Assembly (NCBI GenBank): GCA_040830705.1
Contig: JBFOME010000004.1
Location: forward strand, 3,283-67,282
Direction of reading: 5' to 3'
Source of the DNA: Paracoccaceae bacterium
Lineage (GTDB): Bacteria > Pseudomonadota > Alphaproteobacteria > Rhodobacterales > Rhodobacteraceae
DNA: 64,000 bases
Every line of letters starts with the position of its first letter. Within the stretch, counting starts at the first letter, position 1. The translations under genes were made by a program, and so were the position numbers. Positions 4,813 through 13,854 of this stretch are shown here, piece after piece. The notes below the pieces were generated by a model. The model had not been told where the DNA came from. It saw only the letters and a program-made list of their open reading frames with translations, and did not search any database.

Positions 4813-5063
4813 GTTTCTCCTCACTCTCTACCGAACATGTGCGGGCAGGAAATGCCGAAGGTGCCGCCTGAATTGAATATTTCAGATGCGGTGTGGCCGG
4901 GTGAGGTTCAATGGGCTGAGCTCGGCAAGGGCGGCGATAATCCCCAAATACGGGCGTTCAAGGCCGTATATTAAGCAGTCTTAACGTCCGCCACCGCCAG
5001 GGTTAACTTTCCAACAGCTGATTTTGAAACCGAAGCCGATCGTTGAACCGGCAATTCTTTGTG

Positions 5064-6023
5064 TCAGCGGATAATGTTTTTGCGGCGCAGTTCGGCCCAA
5101 AGTGCCGCAGGAAGATCGGCGCGGAACTGGTCGATATTGCGCAAAAGCGAGCTGGGATTTGACGTCCCGATCAAGGTGGACGCGACATGCGCGCTTTGTG
5201 CCGGATATTGCAAGGCGGCAGCAGCCATCGGAGCGTCATGGCGGGCGCAGAGTTCCTGGATCATCGCCGCCCGCGCGCGGATATCCGGCGGGGCAGGGGC
5301 GTAGTTGTATTGCGCGTCTTCCACCGGTCCGGTGGCAAGGATGCCGGAATTGAACACCCCGCCGATTACCAGCTTGGTACCGTGCCGTGTGAGCAGCGGG
5401 AACAGCCGATCGGCGGCAGTTTGTTCCAGCAACGTGTAGCGACCGGCAAGCAGGATCAAATCAATGTCGAACTGTCCAAGGAGCTCTTCGCAGATCTCGA
5501 CAGTGTTGACACCGATCCCTATGGTCGAGACCGCTCCGCTGTCTTTCAGAGCGCGCAGTGCCTTGTATCCGCTCTCCAGCAGTTGGGCGCGGTGATGCGG
5601 CGTGTCGGTGCCCGCATCGGGATCGCCGATGTCATGCACAAAAACGATATCGATGCGGTTGAGCCCAAGGCGTTGATGGCTGTCCTCTAATGAACGCATG
5701 ATCGCGTCATAGGTGAAGTCGAAATCCTGCCGGAAGGGTAGGGAGCTGTGAAAGCCGTTGACCACTTCTGGTGAGGTAGCTGTGGGGGTTAGAACGCGAC
5801 CGACCTTGGTCGACAGCACCCAACCATCCTTGTCACGCAGAAAATCCCCGACACGCCGCTCAGACGAACCGTTGTCATAATGCGGTGCAGTGTCGAAGTA
5901 GCGGATACCTGCGTCCCATGCAGTTTGCAGGACCTCATGCGCCGCCCGCGCGCTCACCGGTTTATAAAGTCCGCCAAGACTGGCCGTACCAAAAGAAAGG
6001 GTGTGGTCAGATGTCAGGATCAT
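5064..6023 (-). CDS. Aldo/keto reductase, aldose (L-galactose/L-fucose/D-threo-aldose) 1-dehydrogenase-like
   Basis: FGTASLGGLY, GIRYFDTAPHY, LSTKVGR, RIDIVFVHD, LLAGRYTLL, GGVFNSGIL motifs of the sugar-dehydrogenase AKR subgroup. Confidence 0.8.
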   Translation of the reverse strand: MILTSDHTLSFGTASLGGLYKPVSARAAHEVLQTAWDAGIRYFDTAPHYDNGSSERRVGDFLRDKDGWVLSTKVGRVLTPTATSPEVVNGFHSSLPFRQDFDFTYDAIMRSLEDSHQRLGLNRIDIVFVHDIGDPDAGTDTPHHRAQLLESGYKALRALKDSGAVSTIGIGVNTVEICEELLGQFDIDLILLAGRYTLLEQTAADRLFPLLTRHGTKLVIGGVFNSGILATGPVEDAQYNYAPAPPDIRARAAMIQELCARHDAPMAAAALQYPAQSAHVASTLIGTSNPSSLLRNIDQFRADLPAALWAELRRKNIIR

Positions 6024-6029
6024 AATTGC

Positions 6030-7232
6030 TTACGCCGCGCTGTGGCAGCCGGGCTCCGGCCGCGTTTGGGATTTATAGGTCAGGACGAATTCGGTATGGC
6101 CTAAATCTTCGGATGCGGTGGTAGCGCCCCTGGCGAGGGCGGTGACCTTTCCGAAAATCTCTTCCCCAACCTCGTCCAGCGTCGCCTCGCCGGTCAGGAT
6201 GCGCCCGGCGTCGACGTCCATATCCTCGGCCATGCGCGCATAGGTGTCCGGATTGGCGCAAACCTTGAGGACAGGCGAAATGGCAGAGCCTACAACCGAG
6301 CCGCGCCCAGTCACAAAGATCACCGCATGCACCCCGCAAGAGATCAATTCGACAATCTCGGCCGTGTCGTTGATGTTGGGGAAGCCGAATTTTGGCGGGC
6401 CGTCAGGAACAACGTCCAAAAGATAAAGGCCGCCGGTTGCCGCCCGCTGGGCGGGACGCAGGATGCCAGATATCTGGCTGTCACCAGATTTTGCATAAGC
6501 ACCCAGCGATTTCTCTTCGATCGTCGACAAACCGCCTGTGGCGTTGCCCTGTGAGAATGAGCCATAACCCATCGCGGCATAATAGGCGGCGGCCTTCTCG
6601 ACAGTACGGATCAGTTCCTGCTTGAGGGCAGGCGTGGCTGCACGAGCAGCCATGACGTGTTCGCAGCCGATCAACTCTCCGGTTTCTTCAAAAATGCAGG
6701 TGCCACCGGCGGCGACCAACTTGTCAAAGGCACGGCCAGCGGCGGGGTTGCCGGTCATTCCTGAGGTGGCGTCCGATCCGCCACAGATCGTACCGATGAC
6801 AAGGTCCGAGTGACGGATCTGCACACGGGGCTGGCATTGCAGCTCGGCGCGTCGCGCATCCACCCAAGCGCGGCCCTCATCGATCGCGGATCGGGTGCCG
6901 CCCACGTCCTGAATGGTCGTCAGCTGCACGGGCCGGCCCGAGGCTTCGACCGCGCGAAGAAGCTCGGTCTTGCGGAAGTTTTCACATCCGAGCGAGACAA
7001 GCTGAACCGCACCGACATTAGGATGGGTGCACAAGGCTTCCATCATCTCCTGCCCGTAACGGCTTGGGAAACATCCTGAAAAGCCAATGACCTGTACGTC
7101 CTGATCGGGATAACCTCGGGCGATCTGCGTGCAAACGTGATGCGCGCATTCAACCAGATATGCAACAAGTACAATGTTGCGGATGCCCTTGCGCCCGTCA
7201 CTGCGCTGCCATCCGGTTATCGGCGAACTCAT
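6030..7232 (-). CDS. UxaA-family (altronate/galactarate dehydratase) large subunit
   Basis: RSDGRKGIRN, HPNVGAVQLVSLGCE, CGGSDATSG, GGLSTIEEKSLG, FVTGRGS motifs; lacks the N-terminal SAF domain. Confidence 0.85.
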   Translation of the reverse strand: MSSPITGWQRSDGRKGIRNIVLVAYLVECAHHVCTQIARGYPDQDVQVIGFSGCFPSRYGQEMMEALCTHPNVGAVQLVSLGCENFRKTELLRAVEASGRPVQLTTIQDVGGTRSAIDEGRAWVDARRAELQCQPRVQIRHSDLVIGTICGGSDATSGMTGNPAAGRAFDKLVAAGGTCIFEETGELIGCEHVMAARAATPALKQELIRTVEKAAAYYAAMGYGSFSQGNATGGLSTIEEKSLGAYAKSGDSQISGILRPAQRAATGGLYLLDVVPDGPPKFGFPNINDTAEIVELISCGVHAVIFVTGRGSVVGSAISPVLKVCANPDTYARMAEDMDVDAGRILTGEATLDEVGEEIFGKVTALARGATTASEDLGHTEFVLTYKSQTRPEPGCHSAA

Positions 7233-7543
7233 TTGCTTTCTGCTTTCATGTCCTCGACCACTGTGTATCGACTGGCGATATTGTGCAGATGCACATGCTC
7301 GCCCTGGGCGATGTCGCTGGAGGCAAAGCCTATGGGGGCGCCATATTTGAGAACATCCGCTCCGGCAGGGATCGCGGTTAAGGCGATCTTGTGCCCCATT
7401 TCCAGATCGGCGGGGGCGGTGAAGGTCATCGAATCCAAGGTCATTGCATCGCCCCTGCCTACGGCTTGCGCCAGTACCGCCACATTGTCTTTCACATGCA
7501 GACGCAGCAGCCCGACTGCAGGCTCTGAAACACTGTTTACCAT
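7229..7543 (-). CDS. UxaA-family small (SAF domain) subunit
   Basis: LHVKDNVAV, GHKIAL, VLKYGAPIG, GEHVHLHN; AGGAGG RBS; ATGA overlap with the large subunit. Confidence 0.87.
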   Translation of the reverse strand: MVNSVSEPAVGLLRLHVKDNVAVLAQAVGRGDAMTLDSMTFTAPADLEMGHKIALTAIPAGADVLKYGAPIGFASSDIAQGEHVHLHNIASRYTVVEDMKAESK

Positions 7544-7556
7544 CGCCGCGACCTCC

Positions 7557-7614
7557 TAAAATGTATCTTTTGCAAAAAAAACAATTGACGGCAACATAAA
7601 ATGTTTTTTACGCA
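7557..7614. promoter_or_regulatory. Divergent promoter with two TAAAATGT-core repeats flanking a TTGACG -35 element
   Basis: TAAAATGTATCTTTTGCA at 7557 and TAAAATGTTTTTTACGCA at 7597 (40 nt apart); TTGACG at 7585-7590; AT-rich island between divergent operons. Confidence 0.45.
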
Positions 7615-7647
7615 TAGAAAGCATTTTTGCGGGAACTGCAGGGAACG

Positions 7648-8439
7648 ATGGGTGTGATTGAGGCAAAAGGCGCCAAGCCGCCGGTTCTGGAAGCACAAGG
7701 AATTTCAAAGCACTACGGTGGTATCGTTGCGCTCGACAGTGTTGATCTGACCCTGCTGGAAGGCGAGGTGCTGGCCGTTGTAGGTGACAATGGCGCAGGA
7801 AAGTCCACGCTGATCAAGGCCCTGACCGGTGCGATCCTCAGGACAAGCGGCACGATCCGGTTTGACGGGGTGGAAACTCAGATCGACACGCCAACAGACG
7901 CCAAAGCCGCCGGGATCGAGACCGTTTATCAGGACCTCGCACTGGTCAACGAAATCTCAATCACCAAGAACGTTTTTCTGGGTCGCGAAATTGTGCGCGA
8001 CGATTGGTTGGGGCGTTGGTTCGGGGTGCTCGACTTTAAGAAAATGGACGCCGAAATTCGCAATCTGTTCAGCAAGCTGGATGTACGTATCGCTGACATT
8101 TACCGCGAGGCCGAGGCGTTTTCCGGCGGGCAACGGCAGGCCGTCGCCTTGTCCAAAACCGTGCTCTTTGGCAAGCGCGTGGCCATCCTTGACGAACCGA
8201 CCGCAGCCCTTGGCGTGCGCGAGAGCCAGATGGCGATGGACCTTGTCCGCTCACTGAAAGACCACGGGCTGTCAGTCATCATGATCACCCATAACATGCA
8301 GCATGTCTTGAACTATTGTGACCGGGTCATGGTGCTCAGGCTAGGGCGGCTGGTGGCGGTGCGTAACGTGAAAGACGTCGACGGGGACACCTTGGTTGGG
8401 CTGATCACCGGCGCAAGTGAAACGGCGGTGGTGTCATGA
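7648..8439 (+). CDS. Sugar ABC transporter ATP-binding protein (single domain)
   Basis: GDNGAGKS, YQDLAL, FSGGQRQAVA, ILDEPTAALGVRES; start placed at ATG 7648. Confidence 0.92.
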   Translation: MGVIEAKGAKPPVLEAQGISKHYGGIVALDSVDLTLLEGEVLAVVGDNGAGKSTLIKALTGAILRTSGTIRFDGVETQIDTPTDAKAAGIETVYQDLALVNEISITKNVFLGREIVRDDWLGRWFGVLDFKKMDAEIRNLFSKLDVRIADIYREAEAFSGGQRQAVALSKTVLFGKRVAILDEPTAALGVRESQMAMDLVRSLKDHGLSVIMITHNMQHVLNYCDRVMVLRLGRLVAVRNVKDVDGDTLVGLITGASETAVVS

Positions 8440-9422
8440 GCCAGGCCGACAGCTCCTCGGCGGAATCGACACCCGGCGGTACTGCCAGGGGGGTCGATCT
8501 GCTAAAGCACAACTTCATGCAGATCTGGCAAGTGCTCGCAGCGCTGGTGCTGATCTATGGTTTCTTTTTCATCATGTCGCCACCGTTCCGCAGTTTCGAC
8601 ACGCTCCTGTCGATCTTCGGGCAGGCGTCAATTCTGGCAATCCTGGCCTGTGGCACGACGATTGTGCTGATCTCGGGCGGGCTTGATCTGTCTGTGGGCT
8701 CGATCTTTGCCGTGGTCGGCGTCTCTGTCGGCATCTTCATGGCCGAATGGGGCCTGCCGCCCTATCTGGCGGTCGGGTTGGGGCTAGCAATCGGAGCGGG
8801 GTTGGGCGCGCTGAACGGTACGATACAGGTGCTGACGAATGTGCCTGCCTTCATTGTCACCTTGGGAGGGCTTACCGCCTATAAGGGGCTTGCCGAAATT
8901 TTGGCCAGCGGTCGCGACCTTTCGCGCTTTCCCGACGCGTTCCGGGTTCTGGGCACGGGCAATACTGTCCCGATGCTGGTCATGTTTGCGGTCGCGATCC
9001 TGACCGGGCTGTTTCTGACCAAAACGCGGCTCGGCAGCCGCGCCTTTGCAATCGGTGGCAATCAGGAGGTCGCGCGCCTGTCCGGCGTGCCGGTCGCAAA
9101 AAGCCGGGTCTACTACTACATGCTGGGCGGTCTTCTGGCCGGTCTGGCTGCGATCATCGAAGTTTCGAAGCTGAACTTCGCCATGCCAGCCCGTGGGCAA
9201 AGCTATGAGCTTTATGCCATCGCTGCTGTCGTGATCGGCGGCACCAGCCTTTTCGGCGGGCGCGGCGGTGTCGGGAAAACGCTGCTCGGCATGTTCATCA
9301 TGCAAACCATTATTGTCGGATTGTCCTATATGGGCGTCGGCACCTCATACCAGCGCATTGCAATCGGCGCGATCATCATTGCCGCCGTTTATTGGGATGT
9401 CTGGCGACGATCGGCGCGATGA
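8436..9422 (+). CDS. Sugar ABC transporter permease (RbsC-like)
   Basis: ISGGLDLSVGS, AIGGNQEVARLSG, YELYAIAAVVIGGTSLFGGRG. Confidence 0.92.
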   Translation: MSQADSSSAESTPGGTARGVDLLKHNFMQIWQVLAALVLIYGFFFIMSPPFRSFDTLLSIFGQASILAILACGTTIVLISGGLDLSVGSIFAVVGVSVGIFMAEWGLPPYLAVGLGLAIGAGLGALNGTIQVLTNVPAFIVTLGGLTAYKGLAEILASGRDLSRFPDAFRVLGTGNTVPMLVMFAVAILTGLFLTKTRLGSRAFAIGGNQEVARLSGVPVAKSRVYYYMLGGLLAGLAAIIEVSKLNFAMPARGQSYELYAIAAVVIGGTSLFGGRGGVGKTLLGMFIMQTIIVGLSYMGVGTSYQRIAIGAIIIAAVYWDVWRRSAR

Positions 9423-9485
9423 GACTGTCTCACATGGCGCACATAACCGCCCCAAACGGGCATTCTTGATACTCTGGGAGGAACC

Positions 9486-10397
9486 ATGACATCCATCTTT
9501 ACCAAGTCGATATGTGCGGCAGCGACCGCGATCGGGCTGACAACAGCGACCTATGCCGCCGATATGCGCATCGCTTATACGGGCTATTCAACCGACAATA
9601 CGTTCTGGATCGGCGTGGCCAGCGCCGCAGCCGCAGAGGCCGAGGCGCAGGGCATCGAGTTCATCGACATGACCGCATCCTCCCCCGATAGCGCGGCGCA
9701 AAAAGACGCGGTGGACCGCGCCATTGATATGGGCGTTGACGGCATCATCATCGGTTCCGTTGACAACCGCGCCTTCGACGCCTCGCTCGACAACGCGGCT
9801 TCCAAGGGCATCCCGGTGGTGGCCGTCGATACCGGCATCGATCATCCGCATATCTCCAGCCTGGTGCAAACCGACAACCTTGCCGCGGCAGGCGTTGCAG
9901 GCAAATACATCGTTGACCAGCTCAACGGCGAAGGGTCGGTTCTGATCCTGGGCGGTTCTGCGGGCCACCAGACCGGCAACGCGCGCCGCGACGGCGTACT
10001 GGGTGCGGCCGAGGCCGCCGGTCACGAGGTGATTTTCCAGATCTGCGACTGGCAGGACGCCTGCGCTTTCGAGACAACGACGAACTTCCTACAGTCGAAT
10101 CCGGATATCAAGGCGGTGTTCTCAGCCTGGGACCCGGGCGCGCTGGCGGCCGTTTCAGCCTCGCAGGCCCTTGGCAAGCTGGACGACCTCGTCATCGTCG
10201 GATTTGATGGCAACCCTGCCAATCTGGTTGCAATCGAAGAAGGTGAGCAGGACGCCACCATCAAGCAGGACAACACCCGCATGGGCACAGAGTCCGTTCA
10301 GATCCTCGCCAATATCATCAAGGGGCAAGATGCCCCGGCGCTGGTGCCGATCGACGGTATCCTGATCACGGACGACAACGTCGCCGACTTCAAATGA
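9486..10397 (+). CDS. Sugar ABC transporter substrate-binding protein (RbsB/Peripla_BP_4)
   Basis: Signal peptide, GIPVVAVD, QTDNLAAAGVAG, VGFDGNP, ATIKQD; GGAGGA RBS. Confidence 0.92.
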   Translation: MTSIFTKSICAAATAIGLTTATYAADMRIAYTGYSTDNTFWIGVASAAAAEAEAQGIEFIDMTASSPDSAAQKDAVDRAIDMGVDGIIIGSVDNRAFDASLDNAASKGIPVVAVDTGIDHPHISSLVQTDNLAAAGVAGKYIVDQLNGEGSVLILGGSAGHQTGNARRDGVLGAAEAAGHEVIFQICDWQDACAFETTTNFLQSNPDIKAVFSAWDPGALAAVSASQALGKLDDLVIVGFDGNPANLVAIEEGEQDATIKQDNTRMGTESVQILANIIKGQDAPALVPIDGILITDDNVADFK

Positions 10398-10404
10398 GAC
10401 GATT

Positions 10405-10434
10405 GCGGCCGGCAGGGGATGCCTTGCCTGCCGC
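10405..10434 (+). terminator. GC-rich hairpin after the binding-protein gene (mRNA stabiliser or partial terminator)
   Basis: GGCAGG...CCTGCC inverted repeat at 10411-10432 directly after the stop; no U-tract. Confidence 0.4.
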
Positions 10435-10458
10435 CCATTCCTCTGAAAGCCGCCTCCC

Positions 10459-11487
10459 ATGCAATGCCTTGTCATCGACCGCGTCGGTAACACCGAGTTC
10501 CGCCAGATCGCACCTCCAGTGCCCGGCACCGGAGAGGTGTTGCTGGATGTGAAGTTCGTGGGTCTCTGTGGCAGTGACCTGAACACGTTTCAGGGCCTCA
10601 ACCCGCTGGTCAAACTGCCCCGTATCCCCGGTCATGAAATTGGCGGTGTTATTGCTGCGCGCGGTCCCGGGGTCGCGCCGGAATTTGCGGTGGGGCAGAA
10701 GGCGATTGTCATTCCCTATACGACCTGCGGGTCATGTCCGGCCTGCCGCAAGGGGCGGGTCAATACCTGCCGGTACAATCAGACCCTGGGCGTGCAGCAG
10801 GATGGTGGATTGTGCCGCCAAATTGTGATCAGGGCGGATCGGCTTATCCCCAATGACACGCTTTCGCTTGCGCATATGGCCTTGGTCGAGCCGCTCTCGG
10901 TGGGGTTCCACGCGGTGTCCCGCGGGCAGATCAAGGCTGACGAGACGGTTCTGGTACTTGGCGGCGGCATGATCGGCGTAGGCGCCATTCTGGGTGCTCA
11001 GGCACGGGGCGCCAGGGTGATCGTCAACGAGATTTCCGAGACCAAACGCCACACTCTTGATGCACTCGGCGTGGATGCGGTGATCAACCCCCAAACTCAG
11101 GATGCCGAACAGGCCCTCACAGAATTGACCGGCGGCGCTGGACCAGATGTGATCATCGAGGCGGTTGGCACCGCAGAGACATTCCGGGCCGCAATCGACT
11201 TGGCCCCCGTCGCAGGCCGCGTCGTCTATGTCGGCTATGCCAAAGCTGAGGTCACCTATGACACCAAATTCTTCAATCTCAAGGAACTCGACATTTTCGG
11301 ATCTCGCAATGCGACACGACCAGATTTCGAGGCAGTTGTTTCATTTCTGGAAAGCCACCCGGATATCGCCAGCCAGCTTATCTCTCGCGTGATCCCGTGG
11401 ACCGACGCAGAGAGCGCGTTAAGCTACTGGACCCGGCACCGCGACGAGACCTTCAAGATCATGATCGATATGGAGGCAGCGCCATGA
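10459..11487 (+). CDS. Zn-dependent dehydrogenase, L-galactonate 5-dehydrogenase (LgoD/YjjN)-like
   Basis: [57 protein letters not shown]; strongly resembles characterised L-galactonate dehydrogenases (from memory). Confidence 0.75.
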
Positions 11488-12239
11488 GCCTAGCAGCGAT
11501 CTATGGGCTGGATGGGCAGCGTGCCTTGGTCACCGGGGGTGGTACAGGGATCGGCAAGGCAATTGCGGCCTGTCTGGTTGAGGTCGGCGCCGATGTGGTG
11601 ATTGCAGGTCGGCGCGCGGATGTCTTGGAAGCGGCAGCAGCGGAAATCGGATCAGGCTGCCGGTTCAAGGTCTTCGACATCACTGAGATCGCGGCGATTA
11701 AGGCGTTCGAAGCCGAGCTTGGTCCGATAGATATTCTTGTCAACAATGCGGGAAACACGCTCAAAAAGGCGTTTGAGGATCAAACGCTAACCGAGTTCGA
11801 TCAGGTCTTTGACGTGCATGTCCGCGGCGCGTTGGAGCTGAGCCGCCGCGTCATCCGCCGCATGCTGGCTGAGAACCGCGCCGGTACGATCCAGTTCCTG
11901 TCCTCGATGACCGCCTATATCGGTCAGCCCATGGTCTCGGGCTACACGATTTCCAAAACCGCAATCAACGGCGTTGTGCGCGGGCTGTCGGCAGAGTTTG
12001 CTGGGCGCGGGATTCGCATCAATGGCGTGGCACCGGGATGGATTGACACCGACATTTTCCGCAATGCCACCCGGGGCGACCCGGAACGCAAAGCAAAGAT
12101 CATGAGCCGCATTCCCATGGGCCATCTCGGCCAACCCGAAGATATCGGCAGGTGTTGTGCCTTCCTCGCCTCTCCGGCGGCGAAGTACATCAATGGGCAG
12201 GTCGTCCTTGTGGATGGGGGCGGCGCGACTGGGTTTTAG
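11484..12239 (+). CDS. Short-chain dehydrogenase/reductase (gluconate 5-dehydrogenase-like)
   Basis: [19 protein letters not shown] (YxxxK), [14 protein letters not shown] overlap with upstream gene places the start at 11484. Confidence 0.88.
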
Positions 12240-12253
12240 GGAAAGGCAGGTCA

Positions 12254-12919
12254 ATGGCGTTGGATTTCGACAGAATTCGTACAGAGCTTTTCACCGCGGT
12301 CATCGGGGACGTGCTGGACCAGCTTGGCTACCGGGATCAGTTTCTTCCTGCGGGCGTGACCCCCTTGATACCGGGCACGCGCATTGTCGGGCGCGCCATG
12401 ACGGTTCAGGAGACGCCCTATGCCATGGGCGAAGGGCAGGGGCCGCTGGCTGATCGCCCATTCGGACTGATGTTCGAGGCACTTGATGACCTTAAGGAAA
12501 ACGAGATCTACATAACAACCGGGACGTCGCTAAACTGCGCACTCTGGGGTGGACTGATGTCCACGCGAGCAATGTATCTCAAGGCTGCCGGTGCGATTCT
12601 GGACGGCTATGTCAGGGATACCGCAGAGACACGGCACCTCGGGTTCCCGGTGTTTTCGCGCGGAGCTTACGCACAGGATCAGGGCACAAGGGGCAAAGTG
12701 GTCGACTATCGCATGCCACTCCGTATCGGGCCTGTTCAGATAAACGATGGCGATCTCATCGTTGCCGATGACGAGGGGGTTCTGGTCATCCCGCAAGACG
12801 TCGAAGTCGACGCAATCACGGCAGCCCACGAGAAAGCCGCCACAGAAAGCGAGGTTGCCATTGCAATCCGGGGCGGCATGTCGACAGTAGATGCCTTCAA
12901 GACGTTTGGCGTCATGTAA
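12254..12919 (+). CDS. RraA-family protein (HMG/CHA aldolase-like)
   Basis: TAVIGDVLD, IVGRAMTV, ALWGGLM, DGYVRD, GDLIVADDEGVLVIP. Confidence 0.85.
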   Translation: MALDFDRIRTELFTAVIGDVLDQLGYRDQFLPAGVTPLIPGTRIVGRAMTVQETPYAMGEGQGPLADRPFGLMFEALDDLKENEIYITTGTSLNCALWGGLMSTRAMYLKAAGAILDGYVRDTAETRHLGFPVFSRGAYAQDQGTRGKVVDYRMPLRIGPVQINDGDLIVADDEGVLVIPQDVEVDAITAAHEKAATESEVAIAIRGGMSTVDAFKTFGVM

Positions 12920-12957
12920 GCGGCGGCTGCGAGAGTTTGAGATGGTGAATTTGGAAT

Positions 12958-13854
12958 ATGTCGCGCAGTAACAGCACTTACAAAGACAGCTATAACCGGG
13001 CGCTAGACATGATTGGCACCAGCGAGAACATGCCCGAATTGCCGACTGAGGTGGTGCTGGCGGAAACTTGGGCTGTCAGCCGCACCACAGTGCGCAGCAT
13101 ACTGCATCGCTTACAGGATGCGGGTATCATTGAATGGTCGGGCCGCACCAAAAAGGTGCTGCGCAAGCCCAGAAAGAACGAGTATTTTCCGGCCTCTGAA
13201 ACAGAGTCGGTCGCAGAGAAGCTGCCATCCCTGTTCATGGAGTACATATTTGCCGGTGAGCTGACCCCGGGCGCGACGTTGCGCGAGACAGAATTGGCCA
13301 AGGCGTTTGGCGTAGGGTCCACGGCGGTGCGCGAGTTCCTGATCCGGTTCTCACGCTTTGGTCTGATCAAGAAAAACCCAAACCGGCACTGGGTCTTGTT
13401 GGGCTTCACCCGGGATTTCGCCGAAGAGCTTTTTGCGGTCCGCGAAATTTTCGAACGCGAGGCATTCCAGTCTTTCCTGTCGGGTCCACCTGCGCGCCAC
13501 GCCAAAGCCACGATGCTTCGCGCAGAGCATGAGACAATTCTGGCGCATATTTCACGGGACTATGTTCTGTTCCCACGCCTTGACGAAAAGTTCCACCGAG
13601 TTTGGATCGACGAATTCGCCAACCGCTTTGTTCGTGACTTCTTCGAGTTGGTCTCGCTTGTGTTTCACTACCACTATCGCTGGAACAAGCGCGACGAGCT
13701 GGAGCGCAACCATCGCGCCCTAGAGCAACATCTGGAGATCATCGCGGCGCTGGAGGCGGGTGACCTCCCGCGGGCCCATGCCGCCTTCGATGTCCACCTC
13801 ACCCATGCCAAAGAAACGCTTTTGCGATCTGTCACATGGGATAGTCCCGACTAG
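12958..13854 (+). CDS. GntR-family regulator with two HTH domains plus FCD (LgoR/YjjM-like)
   Basis: MSRS start, HTH1 LAETWAVSRTTVR, HTH2 ETELAKAFGVGSTAVREFLIRFSRFGLI, C-terminal VFHYHYRW...RNHRALEQHLEII, paralleling E. coli YjjM. Confidence 0.85.
   Translation: MSRSNSTYKDSYNRALDMIGTSENMPELPTEVVLAETWAVSRTTVRSILHRLQDAGIIEWSGRTKKVLRKPRKNEYFPASETESVAEKLPSLFMEYIFAGELTPGATLRETELAKAFGVGSTAVREFLIRFSRFGLIKKNPNRHWVLLGFTRDFAEELFAVREIFEREAFQSFLSGPPARHAKATMLRAEHETILAHISRDYVLFPRLDEKFHRVWIDEFANRFVRDFFELVSLVFHYHYRWNKRDELERNHRALEQHLEIIAALEAGDLPRAHAAFDVHLTHAKETLLRSVTWDSPD

Follow-up and report, generated by a model that had tools for sequence, protein, structure and literature searches.

A putative L-galactose/L-galactonate gene cluster with a split dehydratase and an RraA-like protein in a marine Roseobacter-type bacterium

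A ten-gene cluster in a marine Roseobacter-type bacterium, represented by a MAG from a mollusc metagenome, is tentatively read here as encoding the oxidative breakdown of L-galactose, L-galactonate or both. The system varies a known pathway, with putative stand-ins for several textbook enzymes, and is not of a new kind. What the analysis establishes is gene content, domain families, conserved catalytic residues, synteny and the distribution of modules across genomes; we infer all substrates, the step order and how the genes are regulated. In the proposed route an ABC system would import the substrate and an aldo-keto reductase (AKR) would oxidise L-galactose at C1, assisted in relatives by a mutarotase and a lactonase, while in this genome ring opening of the lactone would be spontaneous or fall to an unrelated lactonase. 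A Zn-dependent dehydrogenase (ZnDH) would then oxidise L-galactonate at C5 to D-tagaturonate, which a classical SDR would reduce from the other face to D-altronate, the two steps jointly inverting C5. Further on, KDG (2-keto-3-deoxygluconate) would be cleaved to pyruvate and D-glyceraldehyde by an RraA-like protein without phosphorylation, or could leave by another exit, the KdgK and Eda encoded elsewhere in the genome. An LgoR-like regulator would govern both operons via their shared promoter region.

Layout of the cluster and its regulator

ORF calls, Pfam and NCBIfam place ten intact genes, arranged as two divergent operons, at positions 5064–13854 of the window (the whole stretch of 64,000 nucleotides analysed). 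The gene list of a first-pass annotation (AKR, split UxaA, ABC system, ZnDH, SDR, RraA-like protein and regulator) proved right in content and coordinates, and the cluster's gene content confirms its remark that UxaB, KdgK, Eda and a lactonase are absent from the cluster. The flanks are unrelated: upstream lies a type I secretion/C39 exporter, and Ada is found downstream. The features are as follows.

5035..5052, minus strand: terminator-like hairpin just past the AKR stop codon (consensus scan; a weak pattern match only)
5064..6023, minus strand: AKR, last gene of the leftward operon (PF00248, full length)
6030..7232, minus strand: large (catalytic) subunit of a heteromeric UxaA/GarD-family sugar-acid dehydratase (PF04295 and PF20629; GD_AH_second and GD_AH_C domains)
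7229..7543, minus strand: dehydratase small subunit (PF08666, SAF domain)
7559..7625, no strand assigned: putative shared divergent promoter/operator region (conserved sequence pattern)
7648..8439, plus strand: ABC ATPase with a single nucleotide-binding domain (PF00005, one stretch)
8436..9422, plus strand: CUT2-type ABC permease, RbsC/GguB-like (PF02653)
9486..10397, plus strand: periplasmic solute-binding protein, ribose/allose-binding-protein-like (PF13407)
10459..11487, plus strand: ZnDH, a Zn-dependent polyol-dehydrogenase-type MDR (PF08240 and PF00107)
11484..12239, plus strand: classical SDR (PF13561)
12254..12919, plus strand: RraA-like protein (PF03737)
12958..13854, plus strand: LgoR-like GntR-family regulator (two winged-helix stretches and an FCD domain, Pfam)

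The regulator, described as LgoR-like in the first reading, aligns over its full length (298 residues) with E. coli LgoR at 33% identity, and the genome has no other LgoR-like gene. Within the intergenic region lies the pattern AAATGTA-N-GCAAAAAAAACAnTTGAC-N-AAATGTTTTTTA, which nine Roseobacter-group loci have conserved ahead of their ABC gene and which is found once in the window, against an expectation of 0.01 chance matches.

Enzymes of the proposed route

The AKR is probably an aldose 1-dehydrogenase of the L-galactose/L-fucose/D-arabinose type. Each of its top five PDB hits is an L-galactose dehydrogenase (E from 1e-16 to 1e-21), and the Asp-Tyr-Lys-His tetrad is present; substrate residues Met212 and Trp223 of LguA, a characterised L-galactose dehydrogenase, are replaced by Gly and Tyr, and related AKRs are known to oxidise L-fucose and D-arabinose as well (PMC6336799). 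In Shimia, Cognatishimia and allied genomes one 12-gene operon holds three ABC genes, ZnDH, SDR, RraA, LgoR, the small and large dehydratase subunits, AKR, lactonase and mutarotase in this order, with no promoter gap at the regulator–dehydratase junction; its lactonase scores 202 bits against the L-fucono-1,5-lactonase model, and its mutarotase matches RhaM. No homologue of the cog3618 lactonase or the RhaM mutarotase was detected at E<=1e-8 in the present genome (MAG 92% complete), and both genes are taken to have been lost here.

ZnDH is probably an L-galactonate 5-dehydrogenase. As its initial labelling as LgoD-like implied, it shares 34% identity with E. coli LgoD and belongs to a monophyletic clade sister to LgoD (94/83 support), not to RspB or to the genome's own paralogues, in a tree of long branches and few characterised members. 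Catalytic residues Cys37, His59 and Glu60 and four structural-zinc cysteines are all in place. The SDR, whose start overlaps the ZnDH stop (ATGA) and whose gene comes directly after ZnDH wherever the two were detected in one locus, is a probable 5-keto-aldonate (D-tagaturonate) reductase, with best matches among the KduD, gluconate 5-dehydrogenase and galactitol dehydrogenase types. It scores 180 bits against a KduD cut-off of 339, and 193 against a cut-off of 215 for the glucose 1-dehydrogenase subfamily. Inversion of C5 before dehydration by a Zn-MDR and a reductase has precedents in the LgoD/UxaB, LgnH/LgnI and LguD/LguC pairs (PMC12632266).

The two dehydratase genes overlap by 4 bp, indicating translational coupling, and adjoin one another in 59 of 80 related loci. 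The large subunit matches the GarD structure 6u7l (1.9e-38), and its conserved C29, C54, C83 and C150 align with the iron-ligand cysteines of UxaA (PMC6336799), while the small subunit corresponds to the N-terminal end of the galactarate dehydratase model. Substrates of the UxaA family include D-altronate, L-galactonate, L-fuconate and D-arabinonate (PMC6336799).

Modular distribution and competing readings

Across genomes AKR/lactonase, ZnDH/SDR and dehydratase/RraA can be found as modules apart from one another, as the proposed step order predicts. ZnDH, SDR, both dehydratase subunits and RraA, without an AKR, stand behind acid importers, with TRAP versions in Devosia, Phaeobacter and E. coli; in the latter the TRAP version occurs in 664 of 5426 complete genomes (about 12%), and an MFS version, whose importer is 30% identical to LgoT, in three. 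Phaeobacter sp. J2-8 carries lactonase-ZnDH-SDR-AKR and AKR-ZnDH-SDR sets with no dehydratase gene within or immediately beside them, which suggests that ZnDH and SDR act on the aldonate.

The RraA-like protein is probably a metal-dependent (class II) pyruvate aldolase for a 2-keto-3-deoxy acid, and retains Gly101, Arg123, Asp124 and Glu199 of the HMG/CHA aldolase 3NOJ, residues engaged in metal binding and pyruvate-enolate stabilisation (PMC5065237). No assayed member of this RraA-like sub-clade appears in the literature searched. No unit is more conserved than the dehydratase-RraA pair (55 of 80 loci), which stands alone in Bosea and Kaistia, and an RraA copy of 66% identity occurs in an L-fucose-type cluster without ZnDH. 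Together with the redundancy of a KDG aldolase beside KdgK and Eda, this speaks for a direct non-phosphorylative route, in which L-galactonate or L-fuconate would be dehydrated and then cleaved by RraA to pyruvate and L-glyceraldehyde or L-lactaldehyde, with SDR and ZnDH removing the aldehyde (for instance by turning L-glyceraldehyde into glycerol and this into dihydroxyacetone, on the model of the fungal galacturonate pathway). Such a route is nonetheless unlikely, since ZnDH is of the polyol-dehydrogenase type nearest LgoD and the SDR of the keto-sugar-acid reductase type, neither resembling an aldehyde reductase, both are retained in clusters that have lost RraA, and the J2-8 ZnDH-SDR-AKR sets contain no RraA, the lactonase-led set having none nearby either. 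Under the L-galactose/L-galactonate reading, six clusters that are otherwise intact lack the RraA gene or keep only a remnant of it, in keeping with a product such as KDG, which KdgK and Eda can also handle; the presence of the latter two in the genome would make a non-phosphorylative ending optional, not necessary. The genome encodes elsewhere KdgK, an Eda/Edd pair, a UxaC and UxaB-like pair and a fused UxaA, and holds a separate fused UxaA-SDR-FAH module of the type of the L-fucose/D-arabinose route. The cleavage without phosphorylation proposed in the first-pass annotation gains from the retained aldolase residues and loses from the dispensability of RraA in several clusters and the availability of KdgK and Eda.

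Some features of the importer would suit a different substrate. Its ATPase covers no more than the first half of RbsA/YtfR-type models, two fused nucleotide-binding domains being usual in CUT2-type ABC ATPases. Ribose- and allose-binding proteins are the closest PDB matches of the binding protein. With E. coli RbsB as the template, its pocket is seen to retain two Asp but a single Arg, as in neutral-sugar binders, and looks suited to a neutral sugar. Clusters without AKR carry the same importer (binding protein 85–88% identical). The pocket, the importer's presence in clusters without AKR, and the proximity of the SDR to the glucose 1-dehydrogenase subfamily cut-off would suit a rare neutral sugar, polyol or lactone oxidised first by ZnDH or SDR, with the AKR a lineage-specific add-on. 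This too is improbable, since acid-carrying importers, TRAP and anion-type MFS, also precede the ZnDH-SDR-dehydratase-RraA core, and since the affinities of regulator and ZnDH lie with LgoR and LgoD.

The split dehydratase is 60–68% identical to copies from L-fucose-type clusters, and so may act directly on L-galactonate or L-fuconate. Those copies must act on the AKR/lactonase product itself, and the SDR's best matches include KduD, the natural reaction of which leads from 2,5-diketo-3-deoxygluconate to KDG. A changed order of steps could follow, whereby the dehydratase makes 2-keto-3-deoxy-L-galactonate from L-galactonate, ZnDH converts this to 2,5-diketo-3-deoxygluconate, and a KduD-like SDR yields KDG. 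The dehydratase-free sets of J2-8, the SDR's shortfall from the KduD cut-off, and the fact that C5 inversion precedes dehydration in all known precedents render this order quite unlikely. An L-gluconate/L-glucose-type route as in Paracoccus 43P (C5 inversion to D-idonate, UxaA-type dehydration to 2-keto-3-deoxy-D-galactonate, RraA-like cleavage) matches the families of LgnH (dehydrogenase), LgnI (reductase) and LgnE (UxaA-family D-idonate dehydratase) from a related order of bacteria and would explain the cluster's own aldolase by its keto-deoxy-galactonate product, but is very improbable given that L-glucose and L-gluconate have no known status as natural substrates, that LgnE-type enzymes are fused and resemble the genome's other UxaA (C8), not the split one, and that the relatives' lactonase, mutarotase and AKR are of the L-fucose/L-galactose type.

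Most of the L-galactose/L-galactonate pathway first proposed for this locus is supported by comparative genomics, through the kinship to LgoR and LgoD, the AKR structure matches, the relatives' lactonase and mutarotase, and the modules, whereas the AKR without the LguA Trp and Met, the dehydratase near L-fucose-type copies, and the neutral-sugar-like importer that also occurs without AKR weigh against it.

Comparison with known systems

The HMG/CHA aldolase (LigK/ProA) and RraA-like class II pyruvate aldolases share the fold of the cluster protein as well as the four residues named above, although overall similarity is low (57 bits), Asp102 is replaced by Gly, and the former serves aromatic catabolism in contrast to the sugar-acid context here. 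The Paraburkholderia mimosarum L-fuconate dehydratase (A19U_RS0100650/655, PMC6336799), likened by its description, is also a two-subunit UxaA/GarD-type enzyme. The non-phosphorylative L-fucose 'Route III' (PMC6336799) resembles the relatives' front end of AKR, lactonase and mutarotase and has substrates with a common C2–C4 configuration. Unlike it, the cluster has neither an L-KDF 4-dehydrogenase-type SDR (its own is 30–33% identical to those) nor a FAH-family hydrolase, and features the ZnDH/SDR pair and the RraA-like protein instead.

BVU_0220 of Phocaeicola (Bacteroides) vulgatus, presumably of the cog3618 lactonase family, has a counterpart in the lactonase of the cluster's relatives. The L-galactose pathways of this species (BVU_0219/0220/0222) and of Luteolibacter LG18 (LguA-E, H) likewise employ an AKR-type aldose dehydrogenase and a C5 aldonate dehydrogenase, then tagaturonate reductase and altronate dehydratase (PMC12632266). 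They differ in that the cluster AKR lacks the LguA Met212/Trp223, the window lacks a lactonase, and the downstream enzymes are non-orthologous, with a proposed non-phosphorylative ending as opposed to KDG kinase and KDPG aldolase.

The E. coli accessory islands at abrB-gltA (TRAP version) and aceB-metA (MFS version), uncharacterised and bearing only generic gene names in RefSeq, have this enzymatic core too, with the genes similarly ordered. Compared with the window proteins, identities are 56–57% for RraA, 45–47% for ZnDH, 42–44% for SDR and 42–47% for the small dehydratase subunit; the large subunit is 55% identical in the MFS version and frameshifted in the TRAP strain examined. Both have a GntR-family regulator, though of FadR-type versus LgoR-type in the cluster, together with acid importers and no AKR. 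As a counterpoint, E. coli already has LgoD, UxaB, UxaA, KdgK and Eda, and 12% of its strains would then carry a redundant second route for L-galactonate. Compared with the K-12 L-galactonate pathway (LgoT, LgoR, LgoD, UxaB, UxaA, KdgK, Eda), the cluster has an SDR in place of the long-chain mannitol-dehydrogenase-type UxaB, a dehydratase in two parts (SAF subunit and catalytic subunit), a putative RraA-like aldolase replacing KdgK and Eda, an ABC importer as against the MFS LgoT, and an added AKR for the free sugar. Common to both are an LgoR homologue, a Zn-MDR that is LgoD or a member of its sister clade, a UxaA-family dehydratase, and the proposed logic leading from L-galactonate via D-tagaturonate and D-altronate to KDG.

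Gene layout and the ancestral operon

The ten-gene cluster represents a version of a known pathway that has yet to be characterised, and its core module is widespread. The route proposed by a first-pass annotation, read here as running from L-galactose through L-galactonate, D-tagaturonate, D-altronate and 2-keto-3-deoxygluconate (KDG) to pyruvate and D-glyceraldehyde, stands as the best-supported reading in that order of steps, with chances that we put at roughly even, and it needs four amendments, concerning the loss of a lactonase and a mutarotase, an optional aldolase, the importer cargo and the aldo-keto reductase. ORF listing and profile searches recovered the full gene content of that annotation, with all ten genes intact and arranged as two divergent operons between 5064 and 13854.

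Genes of the cluster, with window coordinates and strand
5064-6023, leftward (-): aldo-keto reductase (AKR; PF00248, full length)
6030-7232, leftward (-): UxaA/GarD-family dehydratase, catalytic large subunit (PF04295 + PF20629)
7229-7543, leftward (-): SAF-domain small subunit (PF08666)
7648-8439, rightward (+): ABC ATPase, single nucleotide-binding domain, 263 residues
8436-9422, rightward (+): ABC permease, BPD_transp_2
9486-10397, rightward (+): solute-binding protein, ribose-binding-protein-like, Peripla_BP_4
10459-11487, rightward (+): zinc MDR dehydrogenase (ZnDH)
11484-12239, rightward (+): short-chain dehydrogenase (SDR), start overlapping the ZnDH stop as ATGA
12254-12919, rightward (+): RraA-like protein
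12958-13854, rightward (+): GntR regulator, two winged-helix stretches and an FCD domain

The two dehydratase subunit genes overlap by 4 bp, a terminator-like hairpin lies 3' of the AKR gene, and neighbouring genes on either side have unrelated functions (a C39-peptidase ABC exporter with HlyD upstream, Ada downstream). Nine Roseobacter-group loci share an A/T-rich promoter/operator segment, which in the window lies at 7559-7625 and has no second copy. Words in the E. coli lgoR-lgoD spacer (L081:7880-7925) resemble this segment (AAAACATTTTTATGCGT vs AAAATGTTTTTTACGCAT), a likeness that may be due to chance. By its close homologues the organism falls within the Roseobacter group; the assembly is a MAG of 3.94 Mb, 92% complete, whose sole sequencing run derives from a mollusc metagenome. 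A search for expression data found none: the sequence turned up only in a DNA run and in oligo-dT metatranscriptomes from a mollusc sample, the latter giving no coverage.

In the nearest relatives (Shimia species, a Rhodobacteraceae isolate and genome G380) the genes of the window form a single 12-gene operon that ends in AKR-lactonase-mutarotase and joins the regulator and dehydratase genes without a gap, and Cognatishimia sp. SS12 has a version that lacks the ABC and RraA genes. In these relatives the lactonase is an L-fuconolactonase-type amidohydrolase with a match to the L-fucono-1,5-lactonase model, and the RhaM-type mutarotase has one to RhaM. In the window the AKR gene is followed by a spacer of about 240 bp (4825-5063) and then a type I secretion gene set, at the place occupied by lactonase and mutarotase at loci L002, L004-L008, L099 and L115, and no homologue or remnant of either was found at E<=1e-8 in this 92%-complete MAG. 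Both genes are part of the ancestral operon and have been lost in this genome.

Importer, dehydrogenases and split dehydratase

The binding protein and permease fit the CUT2 (ribose-type) importers. Such importers usually have an ATPase with two fused nucleotide-binding domains; the one found here has a single domain, as in all close relatives. Mapping of the binding-protein pocket on E. coli RbsB showed two Asp and one Arg to be kept, suggesting a neutral ligand, and a comparison with solved structures returned only generic ribose/allose-binding relatives. The binding protein is 85-88% identical between clusters with and without AKR, and the cargo is uncertain among L-galactose, its lactone and the acid.

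All top five PDB matches of the AKR are L-galactose dehydrogenases, at low similarity (E 1e-16 to 1e-21), and a catalytic tetrad can be read directly off the sequence. In LguA, a characterised bacterial L-galactose dehydrogenase, Met212 and Trp223 are substrate-pocket residues, the latter kept in 99.3% of homologues (PMC13661200); neither is kept here, the aligned positions holding Gly and Tyr. Given the low similarity and these pocket changes, the AKR is best described as an aldose 1-dehydrogenase of the general L-galactose-dehydrogenase type, and action on L-galactose itself is not proven. D-arabinose, L-fucose and L-galactose are all oxidised by a related AKR from Paraburkholderia (PMC6336799).

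In the ZnDH sequence both the catalytic Cys/His/Glu residues typical of polyol-type MDRs and their structural-zinc cysteines can be read, and the enzyme is 34% identical to LgoD, the E. coli L-galactonate 5-dehydrogenase. Its best NCBIfam model is RspB, far below cut-off, and the same holds for LgoD itself. In a tree with long branches and thin sampling, all dehydratase-linked ZnDHs, including copies from E. coli islands, form one clade, whose sister is LgoD and not RspB or the genome's other ZnDH paralogues. The SDR is of the classical type, its best matches being the KduD, gluconate 5-dehydrogenase and galactitol dehydrogenase types, i.e., keto-sugar-acid reductases. The regulator aligns over its full length with E. 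coli LgoR (33% identity, E 2e-56), and its two GntR stretches and FCD domain reproduce the LgoR-type layout of about 300 residues with an extra N-terminal winged helix; the genome holds no second LgoR-like gene.

Two more adjacent ZnDH-SDR pairs occur on other contigs of this genome (C14:51491-62062, locus L102, and C21:22845-25689). The C14 pair adjoins a TRAP transporter, a Gfo/Idh/MocA oxidoreductase, two 3-hydroxyisobutyrate-dehydrogenase-like genes and a xylose-isomerase-like TIM-barrel gene, and this set is probably another sugar-acid route. In Amaricoccus tamworthensis a second set directly next to the cluster copy (L106:10633-18046) follows the same three-enzyme logic but draws its dehydratase from another family: SDR and ZnDH are joined there by an enolase-superfamily dehydratase and a ribose-type ABC importer.

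The dehydratase has the domain division of heteromeric UxaA/GarD enzymes, with SAF on the small ORF and the GD_AH second and C-terminal domains on the large one. The sulfolactate sulfo-lyase SuyAB lacks four cysteines that have been proposed to bind iron in UxaA-type enzymes (PMC6336799). The large subunit has them as C29, C54, C83 and C150, with conservation of 98-100% across 66 aligned sequences; C29, C83 and C150 align with cysteines of E. coli UxaA, and all four with those of the fused UxaA encoded on contig C8 of this genome. These conserved cysteines, together with the sugar-catabolism context, rule out a SuyAB-type identity. The enzyme is a candidate dehydratase for an aldonate with the C2-C4 configuration of D-altronate and L-galactonate.

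A probable RraA-like aldolase and three separable modules

Aligned to the HMG/CHA aldolase 3NOJ, the RraA-like protein conserves Gly101 of the pyruvate pocket, Arg123, which stabilises the pyruvate enolate, and the metal-binding Asp124 and Glu199 (residue roles from PMC5065237). The conserved metal and enolate residues indicate that it is probably a catalytically competent class II pyruvate aldolase, not an RNase E regulator. When genes were called, clustered and mapped at 80 loci encoding large-subunit relatives, the RraA-like gene emerged as the most constant neighbour of the split dehydratase (55/80 loci). These proteins divide into two widely different groups. One, 56-76% identical to that of the window, lies mostly beside a ZnDH-SDR pair. 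The other, about 28% identical, is found in Bosea as part of stand-alone triads, in Kaistia together with ABC importers, and in Hoeflea, Roseibium and Paracoccus within L-fucose-type clusters that also have enolase-type dehydratases, SDR, FAH hydrolase and lactonase. More distant homologues in other Alphaproteobacteria (41-57% identical) are stand-alone genes beside unrelated functions, so that their contexts were uninformative.

The putative RraA-like aldolase is optional for the pathway. Its gene is missing from otherwise intact clusters at five loci, and a sixth, the ABC version of Phaeobacter sp. J2-8, keeps a 29-residue remnant (L115:17019-17105). Such loss would be tolerable if the pathway product were a common metabolite, as KDG is. 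This genome does encode KdgK and Eda, along with a UxaB-like protein, on contigs other than that of the cluster.

All UxaA-type substrates have the C2-C4 configuration in common (PMC6336799), so their keto-deoxy products share the configuration at C4, and a single type of aldolase could thus act on KDG, L-KDF and similar acids. The presence of a 66%-identical RraA copy within an L-fucose-type cluster would be explained in this way. NCBIfam family NF009399, of 501 residues, fuses an FAH-hydrolase domain to an RraA-like domain; the fusion hints that these two families, one or the other of which accompanies UxaA-type dehydratases, are linked in function.

Across genomes the enzymes fall into three separable modules. 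The first, ZnDH-SDR-small subunit-large subunit-RraA, stands behind acid importers and lacks AKR; with TRAP systems it occurs in Devosia, Phaeobacter and Geminicoccus, the last without the RraA gene. The split dehydratase is matched in 664 of 5426 complete E. coli genomes, and in the one strain examined for each site the core is a TRAP version between abrB and gltA (Z226-1, L104), with the large subunit annotated as two fragments, and an MFS version between aceB and metA (PE164, L100). The latter version, found in three E. coli genomes, is headed by an anion-type MFS transporter 30% identical to LgoT, the E. coli L-galactonate transporter, and RefSeq names of the island genes are all generic. 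The second module is seen in Phaeobacter sp. J2-8, which holds four related gene sets (L009, L115, L118: TRAP, full ABC, lactonase-ZnDH-SDR-AKR and AKR-ZnDH-SDR); the last two come with importers and have no dehydratase gene within or immediately beside them. The third comprises L-fucose-type AKR-lactonase-split dehydratase-SDR-FAH clusters without ZnDH. This pattern is expected if AKR and lactonase produce an aldonate, ZnDH and SDR convert it, the dehydratase takes the converted acid as substrate, and the RraA-like aldolase cleaves the dehydratase product. Since K-12 already has an L-galactonate pathway, which the core would duplicate, the core may serve a related acid in E. coli. A literature search for a ZnDH-SDR-split UxaA-RraA module returned nothing, published assays included.

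Order of steps, alternative routes and known systems

Conversion of L-galactose or L-galactonate to KDG, with the steps in either order, is moderately favoured. The dehydratase could instead come first, a KduD-like step then inverting C5 at the level of the keto-deoxy acid. In the large-subunit tree the family is tight (64-81% identity), and ZnDH-linked members are polyphyletic with no clean split from fucose-type copies. Inversion of C5 of an L-aldonate before dehydration is the task of Zn-MDR/reductase pairs in E. coli (LgoD/UxaB), Paracoccus 43P (LgnH/LgnI) and Luteolibacter (LguD/LguC) (PMC12632266). For L-galactonate this inversion would matter, giving D- instead of L-glyceraldehyde; for L-fuconate, which yields L-lactaldehyde, it would be immaterial. 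It may also be that the route leads directly to L-glyceraldehyde, ZnDH and SDR acting downstream, or that it is an L-gluconate/D-idonate route of the Paracoccus type.

The L-fucose 'Route III' is ruled out for this cluster, since a Pfam search found no FAH-family hydrolase in it, its SDR is only 30-33% identical to SDRs beside FAH genes, and a module of that kind lies elsewhere in the genome, at C8:20489-23610. There, on C8:19671-23610 (L101), a GntR regulator is grouped with three enzyme genes, for a UxaA-family dehydratase of the fused form (506 residues), an SDR and an FAH-family hydrolase that scores 416 bits with the 2,4-didehydro-3-deoxy-L-rhamnonate hydrolase model. Judged by its genes, this set, which has no neighbouring aldose dehydrogenase, looks like the lower part of a non-phosphorylative 'Route III' for D-arabinose/L-fucose.

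A wider proposal, put forward tentatively and at somewhat less than even chances, is that the RraA proteins linked to split UxaA form an unrecognised family of metal-dependent 2-keto-3-deoxy-(6-deoxy)hexonate/-pentonate aldolases within a fully non-phosphorylative route. Its members occur in organisms as different as E. coli, on accessory islands, soil Rhizobiales and marine Roseobacters; they would act on KDG, L-KDF and related acids of one C4 configuration and, with the ZnDH/SDR pair for C5 inversion, make a portable route for L-galactonate and L-galactose. The family could be a candidate for the bacterial Dahms-type aldolase, still called unidentified in recent literature (PMC12994016).

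Were the L-galactose reading wrong, the cluster would still be an ordinary sugar-acid operon. Were it right, several generically annotated gene families, exemplified by a conserved accessory island in about one-eighth of complete E. coli genomes, would gain a function, and RraA-like aldolases a new substrate class. L-galactose occurs in plant cell walls and in the galactans of red algae, snails and tunicates, and to our knowledge little has been learned of its use by marine bacteria. If the L-galactose reading holds, three textbook steps would be replaced by unrelated or rearranged proteins, namely an SDR for tagaturonate reductase, a two-subunit enzyme for the fused altronate dehydratase, and an RraA-like aldolase for KDG kinase and KDPG aldolase. 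In the E. coli L-galactonate system, by contrast, the pathway is completed by UxaB, KdgK and Eda, none of which is encoded within this cluster.
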